DNA of 64,000 bases from Stratiformator vulcanicus. GTDB lineage: Bacteria; Planctomycetota; Planctomycetia; Planctomycetales; Planctomycetaceae. Below are positions 24,601-34,099 of this stretch, in pieces. The notes below the pieces were generated by a model. The model searched no databases, had not been told where the DNA came from, and saw only the letters and a program-made list of their open reading frames with translations. Numbering within the stretch: the first letter of the stretch is position 1; each line of letters begins with the position of its first letter. The stretch is taken from NCBI RefSeq assembly GCF_007744515.1, contig NZ_CP036268.1, positions 3,676,088 to 3,740,087 of the forward strand. Direction: 5' to 3'. The translations under genes were made by a program, and so were the position numbers.

Positions 24601-25272
24601 CCCGGCCCTCTTGTCGAACGGATGAAAATCACACGCCAGGTCGCCAACGGCTGGCTTAAATATATCGCCCCGCTCGTCGCCGACGCGGCAGAATTGAACG
24701 GCAGCTTTTCCCTCGCGTTGGCGGAGGCACAATTACCGCTGAACAATATTTCTTCCGGGCGTGCCGCCGGTACGATTGAAGTGCATTCCGGAACCGTCAC
24801 GCAGGGAGGCCTGGCGACTTCGCTCTCAAACACCGTTCGCGATGTCAGCCGAATCCTATCGGTCGGCCGGATAAAAGCCGAGCCGCTTCCCCCCCTGAAG
24901 CTGCCCCCGCAAAAGGTCGTTTTCCGCCTGGCAAACGGTGCCGTCACGCATGACCGATTTATCGTGCGGGCCGGTGACAATCTCACCATCCAGACGAGAG
25001 GAACCGTAACAACTGATGGCCGCCTCGACATCGTCGCGTCGGTTCCCGTTCAGGACCGCTGGGTGAAAGACGACGGCCCCTCCGCCGCACTCAAAGGTCA
25101 AACGGTCTCGGTCCCACTTCGTGGTTCATTCTCCCAACCGAGGGTCGAGCCGACGTTTCTGAATAATCTAATGCAACAGGTCGGCGCTCAGAAACTCCAA
25201 GAGTCGATCGGACGCGGACTCGACGGCGTGGGCGACGGAATTAACCGTGCCCTCGACGGGCTGTTTGATTAA
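21643..25272 (+). CDS. AsmA/TamB-like giant membrane-anchored protein (tentative)
   Basis: 1209 aa; basic N-terminus then a single TM (FAWLGPAFLIVLAGGIWFAP); long beta-rich body typical of AsmA-like proteins; family assignment by architecture only. Confidence 0.45.
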   Translation: MARRPKRDRSENSPEDTANKSEPPKKTKKPPIRKSDAVSDSPEGESVPSRSRFAWLGPAFLIVLAGGIWFAPEIVARTALREAVLERIFPAEVRSRLQIGNVSAGWLNGIRADRVRLRGSADLDVFRAETIELRQPLWKLILDPTDIGTVALFDPVVTSAIRPGGSELEDALAPLLEGEGGTIPAGRVIVENGTISLTSRLGTRVTQLDAIDADFTWPRGVFDPTRLSASARVSDGEQHGQLKITFQDSEQPVDTAQDEFQLVGSTNVTARAAQFSAEDIPLAAALPAFDRLGIDGELFGTLDGRLSGAAVPATENTAAQLSVEGQIDVSRLIARGGPLAEGDRLTLSKCRLLGELTAKNGRLHFRDVALESDIAKCEIDGTQQLPNLDPQNLLRDLLANAPNQDFNWSGSIDLARTSDMLGRTLRLKESLDSGSVRFNYSSEETTNGREWSTRLNVTDLVSQNGTRWQKPFELIADASSTNGRFLIDRLVCRSAFLNADGSGSESGATIKMDCDLDRLRSELERFVSFGDNQLSGVIAADLGFERSSDKGVTTVAANGIGRNLKLVWGDLSLAEPRIGFDTKFSGYPEGQSFDTIESLTCRLEASGDELDLTLLSPLTLTDRNAPQSFQLKLSGNLARWHDRAKPWMPDDSLKVKGTGELTSELRITPTELSLIEAKLNANDFALDTPQLAIRDRRVEVETSAVIDRLTGRIRAPETVWISSSLSARIKNFEYVPEPNGARVVAVALFRGSVGRVGQWFYTASKSPPYWISGVGEGRVALEHDTSGPAMQWQMNVENPVVSRLAQTASAMPAGNWETVWSGRLAQLRGTAKLVSQVDSAELIDCSIELPEGAATFNGIINEVSGRAIADISGQVKLDTATLGPALSKIVGGEVAFVGRTNKPFFIRGPLVPPADALVSPELQAEAGLSWSSGRFYGLEAGPAELDVILKDGTASITPFEMRLSQGKLLGRGDIDLKSSQPVLSMTPGPLVERMKITRQVANGWLKYIAPLVADAAELNGSFSLALAEAQLPLNNISSGRAAGTIEVHSGTVTQGGLATSLSNTVRDVSRILSVGRIKAEPLPPLKLPPQKVVFRLANGAVTHDRFIVRAGDNLTIQTRGTVTTDGRLDIVASVPVQDRWVKDDGPSAALKGQTVSVPLRGSFSQPRVEPTFLNNLMQQVGAQKLQESIGRGLDGVGDGINRALDGLFD

Positions 25273-28200
25273 GCTTCGGAGGATTCATCGGGACTGCTCG
25301 CCCCTCTCGACCGCCGTTTCTTGCGCCGCGCCGTCTTTAACCGCCCGAGCAGCCGCTCATAATCTTTCAAACATTCCCGCAGGCCATTTTCGAGATCCTT
25401 GAGTTCGCGTCGCTCGGAGAGCGACATCTCCATCAACGGCTTCATCCAGTTTTCCATGAGCCGAAATTGCTCCACGAGCACATTTAACAGCGTCGGCGGA
25501 ATCTTATTCACAACGGTGATTGATCCACTCGGTGCATCGTCGGCATTGTCCACGACGGACGCCGGCCCCGCCATCGGCTTGGGTGGAGCTGATTTCTCGT
25601 CTTCATCATCCGCTTCAACATCCTCGGGCACGGCCGTCGCAACCGCGGCATTTGCAATCGACTCCCGCACCAGTCGAATTTCATCCCGCAGCAGTTGCAT
25701 CAACTCTTCATTATTGCCGTTTTGCGTAGGGACGGTCGCCGGAGCCGAACTCGCGGTCTTTTCCATCACAGATCCGAACGTTTCGCCGACGGACCGAATC
25801 GAACCGTGCAACTGTTCAAGATGCGGCGTGATTCTGGCGTCCCAATCGACCGTCGCGTCCACATCCTCCGGCTTCGCGAGAAGGGCCGCTCCTTCGCCCA
25901 CCGCCTTTTCTATCTCCCTTAATCCGTCGCCAAGCAACGTCAACTGAGCGATGACCTGTCCCGCGCTGTCGGAGGGATCGACTCCTCGAAGTTTCACATT
26001 TTCTTTAAATGTCCGCTTGATGTCTTCCCACCGCTGCCGCTCGTCGATTGTCAGCCAACCCATCAACTCTTTAAACTTCAGAAGGTTCGCCTCGGTCCCG
26101 GAGGTCAATGTTTGCGCATCGTTTTGATAATTACTTAGGATTAATGTTTTCATTTCTTCATCGTTCATGACCGCCGCGATCTTTTCAGCGATGCGGTTCA
26201 TATTGCGATAGGAACCCTGCAGCAGGAAAGGAGGCTCCGTCCGATAGTCATCCGCCTGCGCAGCCGATCTGATATATTCCTGATTGACCTTGAGCACGAC
26301 GTCACGCACGCGAAGCAGTTTTCGCATCACGCCAACATATTCGTTAAGTTCGGAAGGCGAGAAGTTTCCTTCGAATTCAACGCCGTCAGCATTTCCGCGG
26401 TCGGCCACCCGCATGATGCCGTAGATGTCCTTTCGAGACGCCGTCGCTAGCGGAGCAAGGGTAGGATTCGATGTCAGTGAGTTCTCAATATAACTTGACT
26501 CAAAAGCGTCGCCGTTGTCACCGATAATTTCGCCGAGGTTATAGATATCGGCCCGGTTGGCGAGCATGTCGGGAATCTTGAATTGCTCACCACTCTCCGT
26601 GTAGGGATTGCCCGCCATGACAACGGCGACCTTCTTGCCGCGAAAATCGTACTGTCGGCTCTCGCCCTTCCACACGCCTTCAATTTTTCGCTGAGCGTCG
26701 CACAAGCTGATGAATTTCTGGAGAAACTCCGGGTGACAATGCTGAATGTCGTCAAGGTAAATTAAGATATTGTCGCCCATCTCGAATGCGAGGTTGAGTT
26801 TCTCCAGTTCCTCGCGTGCTGCGGCATTGTTTGCCGACATCGGGTCGATTGCGGTCACGCTATGGCCGAGTGCCGGGCCATTAATCTTCATGAAGATGAT
26901 GCCAAGCCGATTGGCGACGTACTCCATTAAGGTCGTCTTGCCATAGCCCGGGGGCGAGACAAGCAGCAGCAACCCCATGCGGTCGGTCCGCGTGTCGTCT
27001 CCAGCCGTGCCGATCTGTTTGGCGAAGTTGTCGCCGATCAGCGGCAGATATACTTCGTCCAGCAGCCGGTTCCGCACGAAAGACGTCAACACACGCGGCC
27101 GGAATTCTTCCAACCTGAGATCATCCCGGTAGGCGTCTACCAAATCCTTCTTTTGCTCACCGAATGAGCGAAACAGCGGGGCGACAACATTGGAATGCTG
27201 CTCAAGTCGCCGCACGAAGTTATTATAGTGAAATTGATACTCGCCGCTTTCGATTAATTGATGAGAACCGACCAGCCCTTTGACCGTCGCGGCAGGATCA
27301 GCATTAATCACACGATCGGCGATGCTCCCCGGCGCGCCTGAATTTAAGAGGAGCAGGGCGGCTTCTTCAACAAACTCAAGTCGCTCGTCTTCTTGAAGAG
27401 CGAACGCCTCGACCCAATCGAGCGTTAGTCGATAGAGGTCAGCAACTGACTTCTTCAGCGGATCTGTCGACGCACGGAACTCGTCTTCGGTCCCCCGATG
27501 TCTGAGGGACGCCTTAAAGTGTTCTGCCAGTGTTTCGGCTCCAGCCGCGATTGCAAACGGTCGCCCCGCGGCAAGCACGTCGACAAGGTAATCGATCGCT
27601 TCACTGCGATCGTGGCCTTCAATCGCGAGAAATTCTTCCAATTCTGACAGCGCCAACGCCGTATCAAACACCTCCCGCACAGTGTCGCGATAGGCGTTCT
27701 GTTTACGGGATGCGCTGAAGGCTCGATCGACCGTTCCGACGCCCTTTAACTGGGCTTCGGCGCGCAACCGGTCCCGCTTCGGAACGAAGAACTCCCAGAC
27801 GAGTTCAGCCACGGTTCTGCTTCGACTGCGGTACCTCAAAAGGTCAAGGTGCCGCGCTGTTTTGAAAAACGTCTCAAGAACCAGCGCCGCGTCTTTGTCA
27901 TGCACGCCTTTTTGATAACCCTCGCTGTAACGCGGCGCCATAAACTTCGCGACACGCTCCACGCGGTCTTCGTGCGTTTCGTCGAGCACCCTACGCACGG
28001 CGTCCTCGCCCTCGGCGGTTAACTCACCCGCCATCAAATACGCGAGGAATTCCGCTCGATAGACGGTTTTCGTTTCAGAGACGGTGTCCTGCCCCCACAC
28101 GTCACGGGTTTTGAGAAAGTCTTCATCATCAATCGGTTCAAAAAAGCCTGTCCCAGTCAGATGCAATTGCATCTGATCGTCTTTCGGAACGATCGTCAAA

Positions 28201-30791
28201 TCGAGCGGCTGCGTATTGACGCTGAAGCGATGCCGGCCAAATCGGATTGCGCTTCGACCATCAACGAACAATTCCTTGCGGTCCTTTAATTGCCGGACGG
28301 CATCCTCTTGAGCACTCTTCAGTTGGCTTTGGATGTCGCCCGATTTAACCGCATCTCCCAACTCACTGAGTTGCTTGATGACATCTCTGACCTTGCCAAC
28401 CATTAAGTCGGACGCGAAATAGCCGTTGATGTCGGCAATCGAATCGAAGCTGTCGGATTTGTTCTTTACACCTTTCAGTATCCGATCGGCGGCTTCCGCC
28501 AATGAATTTGCCCGACGGTTTCGAGCCTCGACCAGCGACAGTTTTCTCGATTCGAACGCATCATAAATCTCTTCCCGCTTTAATGAGATTTCGCCAATAA
28601 ATTCGGGAAACTCGGCGAAGCGGCCTTCGAGTTCTTCTAGCTGCACCATCAGTTTCGTCAAAAACTCGTCACAGCGTTCGGGCGTGTCGGCGACGTCGAG
28701 ATAGCCCGCCACCGACTGCGAGATTAATTTCATCTGCGAGGCGAACTCAGCCCGCCCCTCGACTGAGGCCAATTCCTGCCGGCGGTTTTTTAAGCTCGAC
28801 CGCGTGCGATTCACCGAAGCAAAGACCGATGAGATATCATCGATGATCTGCGTCCGCTTCGTCGCGTCATCAATGTCGAGGTTGCTGACAACTTCGATCA
28901 GCATCTCTAATTCAGAAGCCGTCTTGTCGATTCGCTCTCCGAGACTTCTTGCCGCCGCAACGGTCTCAAGCTGCGGAACTCCCTCAGACGCCTCTTGGAT
29001 GGCGGCAATGAAGGGCTTGAGTGCATCGTCCTTCAGCAGGAATTCGACCGTTCGCCGAGAAACGCTTTCTGCCTGATCGACGAGTGACCGCTCCAACTCA
29101 TCGACAAGATCAAGTTCGACATACTTAAGATCGCGGAGCCCGATGACCTCGCCGCGGGCAGCCCGGAGTTCGCCGAGCGTGTCGACGAAATCCTGAATCT
29201 CATCAAAGCGTCGCCGACCGATCGACGAGCGAATCTGATCGACCTTCTGCCGCGCCGCCAACGTCCGCTCTTCGGTCGTCCGGCGAATGCGAACAACCTT
29301 TTCGTATTCATCGATCGCCGATTGGGCGGCATCTCGAACTCCGTCAAGCGGTACTCTTAAATCAGCCGCTTCTTCGCGTCCAATCCAGAAGTAAGAGTCA
29401 ATAATGTCGGTCGTGGTTCGAACGAGATCGACATAGAGATTTTCGTAACTGTCGTCCTTGTCGAGCAGGCTGAGTACTTCCTGGCACTCGCCCATGCCAC
29501 GGACAAGGTCCCGGTTGCCGATTTTGCCGAGAAACGATTCGGTCACCTCGGGCGTCGAAATCGCTTCGGACGAAAAAGGGGTCTGCCAAATTTGAATTGC
29601 GTGATGCTTCTGCGGCTCTTCGTGTGCTTTAAAGCAAATCAGTTCACCGCCATCGAATACGGTAAAGCCGTTGCAGATTAAAGGCGTATCGACCTGTTGC
29701 GCGATCAGATTGTAACGCAACAGCACGTAGGTTCCGTCCAGCGGCTCATAAAAGACATAGAGGAAGTCCTCACCGTTTGGGGACAAAATCCGCTGCCGGT
29801 ATCGCGTCCCCGAAGGAATACCGTCGAATGTCTTGTAGTCGCCGGTCTGCAAATAGTAACCGTTCGGGAAGATCAGGCCCTGATCTTCAGGAAGCAGTAC
29901 GCACGCATTGGCAATCGCATCGATACGGGTGACCTGCTTCTGCTTGTCGTTAAAAACAAGATATCGAAACTCCTGCTCTTGATACGGTCGCACACGCATT
30001 AAGATCAGATTTCCGACCGTGGCGTAGTGTATTTCCGCGTCGTCGAGAACTTGGTCAGGGTTATCGACCGGCTCCGCGTAGATTCCCTCACCGCTATCGG
30101 TATTGTCTTCGACCTTAACCGTTAGGTCACCACCAACTGTCTCCACAAAGACCCGATCAAGAATATTAACGTGCGGATGGAGCCCGTGAATGTGCTGTTC
30201 CCGCGTCGTCCGCTTCCACTCGAATTCGTGCTGCGGCGGGTCCTTGACCTCGTGGTCGCTGCGATTGTCGAGGTAGCGAAACTCGCCCCCGCGATTGAGC
30301 CACTTCAGTGTCTTGAAATCTGTCGCACTCTTGCCGACCTGCATTTGCAAGAAAAGGTGAGGCCCCTTTGTGACGAAGCGTGCGAAGCGAGCATCTTTGT
30401 AATAGCGATAGATGTCGCGGAAGTCTTTTGCGAAGTCGTCGCCGGAGAGCAGAGACAGAGACTCGGTATGAAAACCACCCTCACGGAACTTATACTGCGC
30501 GAAGACATCGACGAGATTGCGTTCGGTCTTTAATCCGAAATGGACGTTGTAACCGAACAGCAGTTGATCGCCGATCGCGACGATGTCACGGGGAAAGCAA
30601 TTGTGGTCGGTTGTGATCCGCTCCGTGCCGACCAATTCGACATCGACCGAGCCGAAGATTTCTTTGCGGCGCTCGTTCAGAGTTGCAAGCCGCTGCCGCA
30701 GTTCTTTCCCTTGCGCCTGCAGCCGTCCCCGCAGGATCTCGTAAGTCCCGCGTTCGAGTTGGCGTTGCGGCTCGTTCGTCGATTCGGACAT
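25269..30791 (-). CDS. giant (1840 aa) protein with a single AAA_5/MoxR-dynein-type ATPase core, coiled-coil regions and an acidic C-terminal tail
   Basis: Walker A LLLLVSPPGYGKTTL, Walker B NILIYLDDIQHC, sensor-1 VAVVMAGNPYTE and Arg-finger-like MLANRADIY, at about residues 1200-1330; ATG confirmed at 30791; homologs are, I believe, often labelled 'DNA repair ATPase' without functional support. Confidence 0.7.
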   Translation of the reverse strand: MSESTNEPQRQLERGTYEILRGRLQAQGKELRQRLATLNERRKEIFGSVDVELVGTERITTDHNCFPRDIVAIGDQLLFGYNVHFGLKTERNLVDVFAQYKFREGGFHTESLSLLSGDDFAKDFRDIYRYYKDARFARFVTKGPHLFLQMQVGKSATDFKTLKWLNRGGEFRYLDNRSDHEVKDPPQHEFEWKRTTREQHIHGLHPHVNILDRVFVETVGGDLTVKVEDNTDSGEGIYAEPVDNPDQVLDDAEIHYATVGNLILMRVRPYQEQEFRYLVFNDKQKQVTRIDAIANACVLLPEDQGLIFPNGYYLQTGDYKTFDGIPSGTRYRQRILSPNGEDFLYVFYEPLDGTYVLLRYNLIAQQVDTPLICNGFTVFDGGELICFKAHEEPQKHHAIQIWQTPFSSEAISTPEVTESFLGKIGNRDLVRGMGECQEVLSLLDKDDSYENLYVDLVRTTTDIIDSYFWIGREEAADLRVPLDGVRDAAQSAIDEYEKVVRIRRTTEERTLAARQKVDQIRSSIGRRRFDEIQDFVDTLGELRAARGEVIGLRDLKYVELDLVDELERSLVDQAESVSRRTVEFLLKDDALKPFIAAIQEASEGVPQLETVAAARSLGERIDKTASELEMLIEVVSNLDIDDATKRTQIIDDISSVFASVNRTRSSLKNRRQELASVEGRAEFASQMKLISQSVAGYLDVADTPERCDEFLTKLMVQLEELEGRFAEFPEFIGEISLKREEIYDAFESRKLSLVEARNRRANSLAEAADRILKGVKNKSDSFDSIADINGYFASDLMVGKVRDVIKQLSELGDAVKSGDIQSQLKSAQEDAVRQLKDRKELFVDGRSAIRFGRHRFSVNTQPLDLTIVPKDDQMQLHLTGTGFFEPIDDEDFLKTRDVWGQDTVSETKTVYRAEFLAYLMAGELTAEGEDAVRRVLDETHEDRVERVAKFMAPRYSEGYQKGVHDKDAALVLETFFKTARHLDLLRYRSRSRTVAELVWEFFVPKRDRLRAEAQLKGVGTVDRAFSASRKQNAYRDTVREVFDTALALSELEEFLAIEGHDRSEAIDYLVDVLAAGRPFAIAAGAETLAEHFKASLRHRGTEDEFRASTDPLKKSVADLYRLTLDWVEAFALQEDERLEFVEEAALLLLNSGAPGSIADRVINADPAATVKGLVGSHQLIESGEYQFHYNNFVRRLEQHSNVVAPLFRSFGEQKKDLVDAYRDDLRLEEFRPRVLTSFVRNRLLDEVYLPLIGDNFAKQIGTAGDDTRTDRMGLLLLVSPPGYGKTTLMEYVANRLGIIFMKINGPALGHSVTAIDPMSANNAAAREELEKLNLAFEMGDNILIYLDDIQHCHPEFLQKFISLCDAQRKIEGVWKGESRQYDFRGKKVAVVMAGNPYTESGEQFKIPDMLANRADIYNLGEIIGDNGDAFESSYIENSLTSNPTLAPLATASRKDIYGIMRVADRGNADGVEFEGNFSPSELNEYVGVMRKLLRVRDVVLKVNQEYIRSAAQADDYRTEPPFLLQGSYRNMNRIAEKIAAVMNDEEMKTLILSNYQNDAQTLTSGTEANLLKFKELMGWLTIDERQRWEDIKRTFKENVKLRGVDPSDSAGQVIAQLTLLGDGLREIEKAVGEGAALLAKPEDVDATVDWDARITPHLEQLHGSIRSVGETFGSVMEKTASSAPATVPTQNGNNEELMQLLRDEIRLVRESIANAAVATAVPEDVEADDEDEKSAPPKPMAGPASVVDNADDAPSGSITVVNKIPPTLLNVLVEQFRLMENWMKPLMEMSLSERRELKDLENGLRECLKDYERLLGRLKTARRKKRRSRGASSPDESSEA

Positions 30792-30929
30792 GTTTCACGG
30801 CTGTCGGCTATCGGCGGTCGGCTGTCTGCAAACGATCGCGATGATAGCCGAAATGACTCAGACTCGTTCGCGCTAAGGATGAAAGCTGATCGCTGAGAGC
30901 CGATGGCCCTCAACTGACAGCATCCAAGA

Positions 30930-33071
30930 TCAGTTCTTGTTATCGGCGAGCCCCAGTCCGAGTGCCGCAACTTTCTTGTCTCCGTCGCCGGAGCCACGGA
31001 CGGCGTCGAGGATATTTCTCAACGCACTCTTATCATCGTCCGACTTGGCCCGTCCGAGCAGATCGAAGATCAACGCCGACACCGAAAGGTCTTTAACGTC
31101 CTCGAAGCTTACATTGAACTTCTCGACAAACTCGCCCAGTCGCTCAGTGAAGTAGTCCGGGTTGCCGTTGAAAAACGTATTCTTAATATCGCTGATCGTT
31201 TCACTATTGTTGACGAAGCGATCAACGGCCTTTCCACTCTTAATGCTGTCGACGATCTTATCGAAGAACTCGGTCTCGCCGCCGACGATATCGATGCGGG
31301 CGGTGCGGAGGGCTTCGCTGACGATCTTCGATTGGAAGTCGGCGATGCGGGCTTGAGCATCGATCGCGGCGATTTCGATATCCTTGTCTTTGTTAAGCCG
31401 CAATTTGAACTCTTCATGTTCGCGACCGACGCCGTCGAACAGTTTCATTGCTTCCGCCTTCTGTTCGATGCCGGTCGCTTCGGCCTCGAACTTCTGCTGC
31501 ATGACGGTCGCCTCGGCCGTACCTTCTTTCTGAATCGCATCGGCCTTGGCTTCCTGGCCTTTAGCTTCGGCAACAGCTTTTTTCTCGATGACCGATGCCT
31601 CGGCCAAGCCGTCTTTCTCCTTTGCCGTCGCTTTTGCCGAAATAACTTCGGCCTCAGCCAAGCCAGAAGCGGCTTCCTGCGCTCGCGTCGCTTCGGCAAG
31701 CATCTTCGAAGATTCCATCTCTTTCTCGGCACTTTTCCGCTGGGCTTCGGCCTCGACGACGATCTGCTCGGCCGTCTGTTCGGCCGCCTGCCGCTCGGCT
31801 TCGGCTTCCTTGACCCGCTTGACTAAAGATTCCTGAGCTTCCTGCTCGGCGAGCGTTACGGCCACTTTCTTTCGACGATCAGCCGTCGCGAATTCTTCGG
31901 TGTCTTTAATTCGCTGCTCTTCCTCGACCACCGCTCGCTCAACGACCACGCGCTCGCGGATGACATCTTGAATATTACGTTTTTCGACCTCGATCGCCTT
32001 CTCTTTTTCGATATCGGCAAGGCCCACGACCTTCTCGCGCTCGGTCTGCTCGAGTTGCTGATCTTTCTTAACTCGTTCCGATTCAACAGCGTCAGTCCGC
32101 TCCTTGCTCTTGGCAGCGACGATGGTCTGACGCATGCGGTTTTCTTCCGCCACGTCGATTTCCTGCTGTGTCTTAATTCGTGCCGACTCGGATCGCAGGC
32201 GTTCTTCTTCCTCAACCTGTTTCGCTGCGGCTTCTTCGCGGGCGGTGATCGACGCGATTTCCCGCTTCTGCTGCTCTTCCGCTTCGACGCGTTGGCGTTC
32301 AAGCTGATAGATCGCCTCAGATGCCTCGACATCCTGCTTCTTGATCGTCTTTTCTTTTTCGCGGGTGATGCTGTTTGAAAGGACGTGTTCACGGGCCGTA
32401 AGGTCCGTGATCTTCTTAATACCTTCGGCATCGAGAATATTTTGCGGATTCAGGAACTCGACCGGAGTCTGCTCCAGATAATCGATCGCGCAGTCGTCGA
32501 GAATATAACCGTTGAGGTCGGTCCCGATATGTCGGAGGATTTCTTCTTTGAATTTCTCACGCTCTGTATAAAGCTCGACGAAGTCGAAATGCTTACCAAC
32601 TGTTTTCAATGCTTCGCTGAATTTTGCGTCGAACAGTTCGACGAGAGCCTGCTTGTCGCTCGCCCTTCGGCAACCGAGTGCCTGCGCGACTTGCAGGATA
32701 TCTTCCCGCGTGTTGTTCACGCGTGTGAAGAATGCGACCTCAATATCTGCCCGCACATTGTCTTTACAGATTAGACCCGACGCACCTTTTCGCGGGATTT
32801 CGATCCGCTTAACCGAAAGGTCCATGTGCTCGGCCATGTGGAGCACGGGAATGACCCAGATGCCCTCGCCCGTGGCAGACTTCAGACCGCCGCGGCCGGA
32901 GCGGATGATCGCCTCTTCGGGTCCTACCTTGCGATAGAACTTTGAGAACATTGAGAGCACGGCCATGATGCCGATGATCAGCACGAAGAGCACAACCAAA
33001 CCGGTCACCAAGGTGCCCGTTTCAAGCCATGCCTGGGCGAACGTCAGGTTCGCGAGAATTGTCGAAAGCAT
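30930..33071 (-). CDS. flotillin-like SPFH (band-7) domain protein with long charged coiled-coil (YqiK/FloT-like)
   Basis: N-terminal TM + SPFH domain (KFYRKVGPEEAIIRSGRGG...IPVLHMAEHMDLSVKRIEI), then about 350 aa of E/K/A/R-rich coiled coil; start ATG overlaps the upstream stop (TAATG). Confidence 0.85.
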   Translation of the reverse strand: MLSTILANLTFAQAWLETGTLVTGLVVLFVLIIGIMAVLSMFSKFYRKVGPEEAIIRSGRGGLKSATGEGIWVIPVLHMAEHMDLSVKRIEIPRKGASGLICKDNVRADIEVAFFTRVNNTREDILQVAQALGCRRASDKQALVELFDAKFSEALKTVGKHFDFVELYTEREKFKEEILRHIGTDLNGYILDDCAIDYLEQTPVEFLNPQNILDAEGIKKITDLTAREHVLSNSITREKEKTIKKQDVEASEAIYQLERQRVEAEEQQKREIASITAREEAAAKQVEEEERLRSESARIKTQQEIDVAEENRMRQTIVAAKSKERTDAVESERVKKDQQLEQTEREKVVGLADIEKEKAIEVEKRNIQDVIRERVVVERAVVEEEQRIKDTEEFATADRRKKVAVTLAEQEAQESLVKRVKEAEAERQAAEQTAEQIVVEAEAQRKSAEKEMESSKMLAEATRAQEAASGLAEAEVISAKATAKEKDGLAEASVIEKKAVAEAKGQEAKADAIQKEGTAEATVMQQKFEAEATGIEQKAEAMKLFDGVGREHEEFKLRLNKDKDIEIAAIDAQARIADFQSKIVSEALRTARIDIVGGETEFFDKIVDSIKSGKAVDRFVNNSETISDIKNTFFNGNPDYFTERLGEFVEKFNVSFEDVKDLSVSALIFDLLGRAKSDDDKSALRNILDAVRGSGDGDKKVAALGLGLADNKN

Positions 33072-33751
33072 TAGGAGTTCTCCGGTTCACCCTGAGACGC
33101 AGGCCCGTCGTTCGGTTTAAGCGGTACAGGTTCGATCCAGTAAAGTCGCTGTTCGGGGTCGTAGTCAACAACAGTCGCCGCGCTACCTTTTGCGATCGGC
33201 TCTCCATGCGTTCGTGCATTGAGCATTAGGGGCGCTCCGTCTTCATTAATGCGGATGCGACCGAAGTCGCTATCTACTATTGAGGTCTCCACCTCGCACC
33301 GCCGACCGATTAACTTTCCGGCGTCGATGGTTTCCACCTCTTTGAATTTTCCTCGCAGCGGCTGGGTCATCACCTTGGCGCCAACAACGCCGAGCGCGAA
33401 GGCCCTCGCAATCGCTCCTAAGATCGGAATCCATGCGAGGTCATAATTCACTCCCTGATCAATCAGCATCGAAGCGGTCCAGTACGACAGACCGAACGCG
33501 GTCAGCCAAATCATCAGCGGAACATCACCAATATTCAGAAACTTCAGCGAGAGCGCGCCCCAATCCGCGACCGAGGGGGCCGCCTGTTCCGCATCGAACT
33601 CAAGGTCCAAATCGAGATCAAGATCGATGTCGAACATGTCCAGGTCGACCGCGCCGACAATCACGAATGACCAATAAGCCAGGCAAAGTCCGAGCAGGAC
33701 GGTTCCGGGCAGCGTGGCCGGCGAGAGTAGGGCGGTGAGGAACTGATCCAT
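33071..33751 (-). CDS. NfeD/YqiJ-like membrane protein (SPFH-partner, C-terminal OB-fold)
   Basis: Multiple TM helices plus a C-terminal soluble domain (GKLIGRRCEVETSIVDSDFGRIRINEDGAPLMLNA); translationally coupled to the flotillin gene. Confidence 0.65.
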   Translation of the reverse strand: MDQFLTALLSPATLPGTVLLGLCLAYWSFVIVGAVDLDMFDIDLDLDLDLEFDAEQAAPSVADWGALSLKFLNIGDVPLMIWLTAFGLSYWTASMLIDQGVNYDLAWIPILGAIARAFALGVVGAKVMTQPLRGKFKEVETIDAGKLIGRRCEVETSIVDSDFGRIRINEDGAPLMLNARTHGEPIAKGSAATVVDYDPEQRLYWIEPVPLKPNDGPASQGEPENS

Positions 33752-33764
33752 TTTCGATCGGGGA

Positions 33765-33829
33765 CGCGTATCGGTGTCGGCGCGAATTCAAGAAAACGCG
33801 TCTCCACGTTGCGATTGTGGGACACGCGT
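33765..33829. promoter_or_regulatory. three ACGCGT palindromes at 31- and 28-bp spacing in the promoter region of the NfeD-flotillin-ATPase operon
   Basis: acgcgt at 33765, 33796 and 33824, 14-80 nt upstream of the NfeD start codon (33751); a helical-turn-multiple spacing suggests an operator array. Confidence 0.3.
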
Positions 33830-34099
33830 GAGCTTGCACACTCACCGAACGTCAATCCAGCCTGATCGGATCACAAAATTTGCGCAGCGGGCACAGAGTA
33901 TTCCCCTCAGCGTGAACGCAACAACATTGCCGGTTCCCGCGATTATGCGGCGGATGTCATTGCCCGCGGATCGCGTTGATCGAATGGCCATCGATTTGCG
34001 AAGAAGAAATTGACTTTGGTCAAACACACTCGTGCCGAGTCAATGTTGCCGAAGTGCGTGCAGCCGCACTCCGTTTTGAAGAAGAGGGCTCGCTCAAGC

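Follow-up and report, generated by a model that had tools for sequence, protein, structure and literature searches.

The locus considered here raises the question why a giant ATPase should be encoded directly behind an NfeD-flotillin pair, and whether the three genes act together. They lie in the window, i.e. the whole 64,000-nucleotide stretch of Stratiformator vulcanicus DNA analysed, as three co-directional open reading frames (ORFs) on the minus strand of its ORF list:

33752..34099, minus strand: non-coding DNA 5' of the NfeD gene, about 350 nt
33071..33751, minus strand: gene for a short NfeD membrane protein of the YqiJ/YuaF type, 226 aa (ORF, Pfam, ortholog profile)
30930..33071, minus strand: gene for a YqiK-type flotillin, 713 aa (ORF, BLASTP, hhalign)
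30792..30929, minus strand: flotillin-ATPase intergenic gap, 138 nt
25269..30791, minus strand: gene for a soluble β-propeller/helical/MoxR-like AAA+ ATPase, 1840 aa, DUF3686 family

The NfeD and flotillin genes overlap at their stop and start codons (TAATG), and this overlap, the gene orientations, the gap and the length of the ATPase are as claimed in the first-pass annotation. The DNA upstream of the NfeD gene is presumably the promoter region of the three-gene module; a minus-strand scan of it gave no sigma-70-like site, and neither this region nor the 138-nt gap has an Rfam match. Taken as a whole, the locus is best explained by a conserved flotillin/NfeD/AAA+ module that performs ATP-driven scaffold remodelling, a reading to which we assign a probability of roughly 55%. 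With high confidence, the trio is a copy of a widely conserved module, and represents an abbreviated form of the flotillin branch of the phage-shock-protein (PSP) membrane-maintenance network.

The identification of the first protein as NfeD/YqiJ-like was confirmed by a Pfam YqiJ_N match slightly over the gathering score (E=5.3e-5) and by a profile of its orthologs, which matches E. coli YqiJ with an hhalign probability of 97.4% (E=1.3e-11); the match to Pfam NfeD (E=0.0066) is under the gathering score. Hydrophobic segments are present at residues 7-40 and 105-128. The N-terminal TM region includes an acidic D/L-rich loop (residues about 36-56), and the C-terminal NfeD-like (OB-type) region comprises residues about 146-206.

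The second protein is indeed a flotillin-like SPFH protein, sharing 31% identity over 451 aa with E. coli YqiK (BLASTP E=4e-47, hhalign probability 100%). Pfam Band_7 does not match the window flotillin, and among 20 orthologs only 3 score against it (the strongest with E=3.3e-13). Four regions can be distinguished:

32931..33032, minus strand: N-terminal membrane anchor, residues 14-47 (Kyte-Doolittle, YqiK alignment)
32397..32930, minus strand: SPFH/band-7 domain, residues about 48-225 (alignment to the YqiK SPFH region)
31392..32396, minus strand: charged helical/coiled-coil region, residues about 226-560 (composition, YqiK alignment)
30933..31391, minus strand: C-terminal module, residues about 561-713 (cross-phylum conservation)

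The anchor is the single N-terminal hydrophobic segment (Kyte-Doolittle peak of 3.08 in a 19-residue window) and aligns with the corresponding segment of YqiK. Glu, Lys, Arg, Gln and Ala account for 63% of the helical region, which aligns with the YqiK coiled coil and gives a weak profile match to the helical region of QmcA. The C-terminal module consists of an EFKLRL...IDIVGGE 'flotillin' segment, followed by a conserved extension that is specific to the ATPase-linked subfamily, and residues 541-660 are kept across phyla. In contrast, E. coli YqiK ends in a Gly-rich tail and lacks this module, on which the ATPase may dock.

The ATPase itself combines a β-propeller, long helices and a single AAA+ module:

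29583..30638, minus strand: β-propeller, residues 52-403, core of Pfam DUF3686 (AF2, Foldseek, Pfam)
28269..29534, minus strand: long helical region, residues 420-841, including DUF7902 (AF2 secondary structure, Pfam)
27342..28250, minus strand: small β domain, residues 848-886, and less conserved helical domain, residues 912-1150 (AF2)
26517..26999, minus strand: AAA+ α/β core, residues about 1265-1425 (motifs)
25872..26516, minus strand: AAA+ lid and conserved C-terminal helical region, residues about 1426-1640 (conservation, AF2)
25272..25871, minus strand: Planctomycetota-specific tail, residues 1641-1840 (conservation, charge counts, AF2)

Pfam matches comprise DUF3686 (E=1e-189, residues 30-468), DUF7902 (E=8e-30, residues 589-673) and, over residues 1275-1399, AAA (E=3e-7) and AAA_5 (E=8.6e-7). 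A hydrophobicity scan found no TM segment. The propeller, preceded by a helix at residues 14-46, was modelled by AF2 with a mean pLDDT of 81.5; its Foldseek matches are the DCAF1 WD40 domain, CyRPA, a Kelch protein and the Vps18 propeller. The longest helices of the adjoining region span about 58 residues in the AF2 model, and conservation decreases to 0.33-0.43 in residues 1001-1200. The AAA_5 motifs of the first-pass annotation are real, although they are located at residues 1282-1415 and not at about 1200-1330: Walker A (SPPGYGKTTL, GYGKT at 1282-1286), Walker B (YLDDIQH, YLDD at 1345-1348), a β-hairpin (1369-1382) preceding sensor 1 (MAGNPYTE, AGNP at 1393-1396) and the Arg motif (PDMLANRAD, NRAD at 1412-1415). 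Each nucleotide-binding motif is more than 90% conserved across phyla, and the region after the core contains an invariant DYRTEPPF..QGSYRNMNR segment. Walker B has Asp-Asp instead of Asp-Glu in all 75 ATPase sequences, which may make hydrolysis slow or switch-like. An aromatic pore-loop motif is not apparent, and threading or unfolding of flotillin tails is therefore doubtful. The tail, described earlier as acidic, is net acidic in residues 1641-1760 only; a long helix (AF2, 1766-1830) follows, and the final 40 residues are basic. It shows no conservation beyond the Planctomycetota, within which a QF.LM..W..P motif is kept.

In databases the protein is annotated as 'DNA repair ATPase'. Taken literally, this name would imply a RuvB-like or SMC/RecN-like action on DNA, with the adjacency of membrane genes being incidental. 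Weak RuvB matches (Pfam RuvB_N E=2.7e-4, NCBIfam RuvB E=1.2e-4) and the LexA-like regulator that adjoins the Bacteroidota operons point in this direction, but the RuvB matches are confined to the P-loop, spanning about 45 residues at Walker A and scoring 21 bits against a family cut-off of 282. Pfam and Foldseek detected no DNA-binding domain, and an SMC/RecN (ABC-type) fold is not among the top fold matches listed, in which the MoxR-type remodellers CbbQ and NorQ are closest to the AAA+ module. As the ATPase adjoins flotillin/NfeD genes in 95% of loci, and the association is reciprocal, the adjacency is not incidental. We thus found no evidence for the database name, and a repair function is very improbable.

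Synteny with the membrane pair, on which the first-pass annotation had made its proposal depend, holds in related genomes. Among 62 loci from other genomes with enough upstream DNA, the flotillin gene is located directly upstream of the ATPase gene on the same strand in 59, and the NfeD gene upstream of flotillin, again on the same strand, in 56. The recurrence of the same order in 59 of 62 loci is far beyond chance, and it supports the view, drawn from sequence comparison, that the three genes constitute a conserved functional unit. The 62 loci belong to Planctomycetota, Verrucomicrobiota, Kiritimatiellota, Bacteroidota, Desulfobacterota and Bacillota; an Omnitrophota locus outside this subset, with 3.1 kb of upstream DNA, also has both genes. 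Plasmid and chromid records add three further phyla, and the layout of small upstream ORF, flotillin and ATPase recurs in Pseudomonas pQBR103, Deinococcus and Streptomyces. The module extends to at least ten bacterial phyla. The reciprocal test gave the same picture: 303 plasmid or chromid records contain a flotillin homolog, only 13 match the window flotillin over its full length, and the 13 ATPase-bearing records are the very same ones; they alone align over the flotillin C-terminal region. An ATPase without a nearby flotillin gene was found in about 5% of loci (L030, L035 and L042). The flotillin-ATPase gap exceeds 450 nt in 27 of 68 loci and is filled by unrelated small genes; since it tolerates such insertions, expression of the genes is not tightly coupled, and because the inserted genes vary by locus, they are passengers rather than components. 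CesT_Tir and PspA genes join the trio in one operon in 17-18 of 27 Bacteroidota loci, and the Bacteroidota operons adjoin an HTH + S24-peptidase (LexA/CI-like) repressor.

This distribution bears on the suggestion of an anti-phage or abortive-infection module, in which the membrane pair would sense or execute membrane damage with the ATPase as sensor or switch. The patchy phyletic occurrence combined with 44-56% ATPase identity between phyla suggests horizontal transfer, copies reside on megaplasmids, the Bacteroidota versions have their LexA/CI-like repressor, and the operon is often interrupted by small genes for nucleases, toxins or transposases. The inserted genes are, however, locus-specific passengers, sequence divergence is very slow, which is unusual among defence genes, and no effector domain is recognisable. 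The PADLOC scan, which covered the trio and its window neighbours, gave no significant match to the NfeD protein, the flotillin or the ATPase (IetA ranks first, E=0.0033, P-loop only), and the window neighbours form no PADLOC system, a stand-alone HNH protein with generic matches being the only hit. The neighbourhoods in S. vulcanicus and at related loci are housekeeping and variable, with no sign of a defence island, and the flanks of the other loci have no conserved partner in common. A search of 50,697 phage records and of IMG/VR contigs yielded no copy of the module. Consequently, the defence reading offered in the first-pass annotation is improbable.

A different possibility is that the flotillin/NfeD cage is merely a platform, on which the MoxR-like ATPase handles other membrane-associated clients by assembly, cofactor insertion or extraction, in parallel to NorQ/NorD, CbbQ/CbbO, RavA/ViaA and FtsH in HflK/C. 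MoxR-type ATPases usually operate with a VWA partner. The fold similarity to CbbQ and NorQ and the nature of β-propellers as generic protein-binding platforms are in line with client handling, as is the proposal of Ravi et al. (PMC11237479) that band-7, CesT/Tir and AAA+ proteins are chaperone-like and assemble membrane-linked complexes; S. aureus FloA-NfeD stabilises unfolded proteins, according to work cited in PMC13086221. Nevertheless, no conserved fourth gene that might encode a client or VWA adaptor was found across 80 loci; the trio operon thus differs from CbbQ-CbbO, NorQ-NorD and RavA-ViaA, which have a VWA-domain partner. The ATPase also has about 1250 extra N-terminal residues and the Asp-Asp Walker B, and its sequence identity to MoxR-family remodellers is only 12-14%. 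The strict one-to-one link to one flotillin subfamily with a special C-terminal module indicates that the scaffold itself is at least one direct partner, and we consider a purely client-directed role rather unlikely.

Scaffold remodelling, the preferred reading, could operate as follows. The flotillin would be anchored in the inner membrane via its N-terminal hydrophobic segment and assemble with the NfeD protein to form an SPFH cage or dome that faces the cytoplasm, comparable to the solved HflK/C, QmcA-YbbJ and flotillin-1/2 assemblies. In known SPFH cages, the C-termini are located at the dome apex. The soluble ATPase would form oligomers, probably hexamers as with CbbQ and NorQ, by way of its one AAA+ module, and its helical arms would present the β-propellers for docking on the subfamily-specific flotillin C-terminal module. 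ATP binding and hydrolysis would drive the remodelling, in which the scaffold would be assembled, opened or stripped, and in operons with PspA, the ESCRT-III-like PspA polymer may also be remodelled on envelope stress. For this particular mechanism, with cage and, where linked, PspA polymers as substrates, we see slightly less than even odds.

The first-pass annotation regarded the system as undescribed; its view of the trio as a conserved unit stands, whereas its claim of novelty does not. The module has already been reported by comparative genomics (2020/2024), and Ravi et al. (2024, mSystems, PMC11237479) described the operon in silico, including an abbreviated form without CesT/Tir and PspA. 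The three protein architectures and their order are identical to the trio. In Dokdonia donghaensis (Table S3 of Ravi et al.), divergent HTH + protease is followed by CesT_Tir, PspA, YqiJ-YuaF, Band-7 + coiled-coil + Flotillin and β-propeller + coiled-coil + AAA, the same layout as in the Bacteroidota loci here. Unlike such full operons, the S. vulcanicus copy has no CesT/Tir, PspA or HTH-S24 regulator gene, and no PspA gene is present within the 64-kb window. Shorter flotillin + YqiJ/YuaF operons, only sometimes with the AAA+ gene, are more widely distributed (PMC11237479). That account gives no quantification, AAA+ clade fold assignment or ATPase-specific mechanism, and does not mention DUF3686.

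Established systems provide further points of comparison. E. coli YqiJ-YqiK and B. subtilis YuaF-FloT are homologous pairs with the NfeD gene immediately 5' of the flotillin gene, as here, but no giant ATPase gene adjoins E. coli yqiJK. HflK/C-FtsH, and likewise the pairing of prohibitin and the m-AAA protease, combine an SPFH cage with an AAA+ machine at the membrane. In the former, the cage encloses FtsH, an AAA+ protease of the classic clade with a membrane anchor, whereas the ATPase described here is soluble, has a MoxR-like fold without a protease domain and carries its propeller on long helical arms. Work cited in PMC13086221 and PMC11188069 indicates that SPFH proteins form cages and pair with AAA+ machines such as FtsH, and that PspA is recruited by the SPFH protein YdjI. 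Vps4/ESCRT-III and PspF/PspA offer a possible functional analogy, the Bacteroidota AAA+ protein being genetically linked to PspA, a polymer of the ESCRT-III superfamily.

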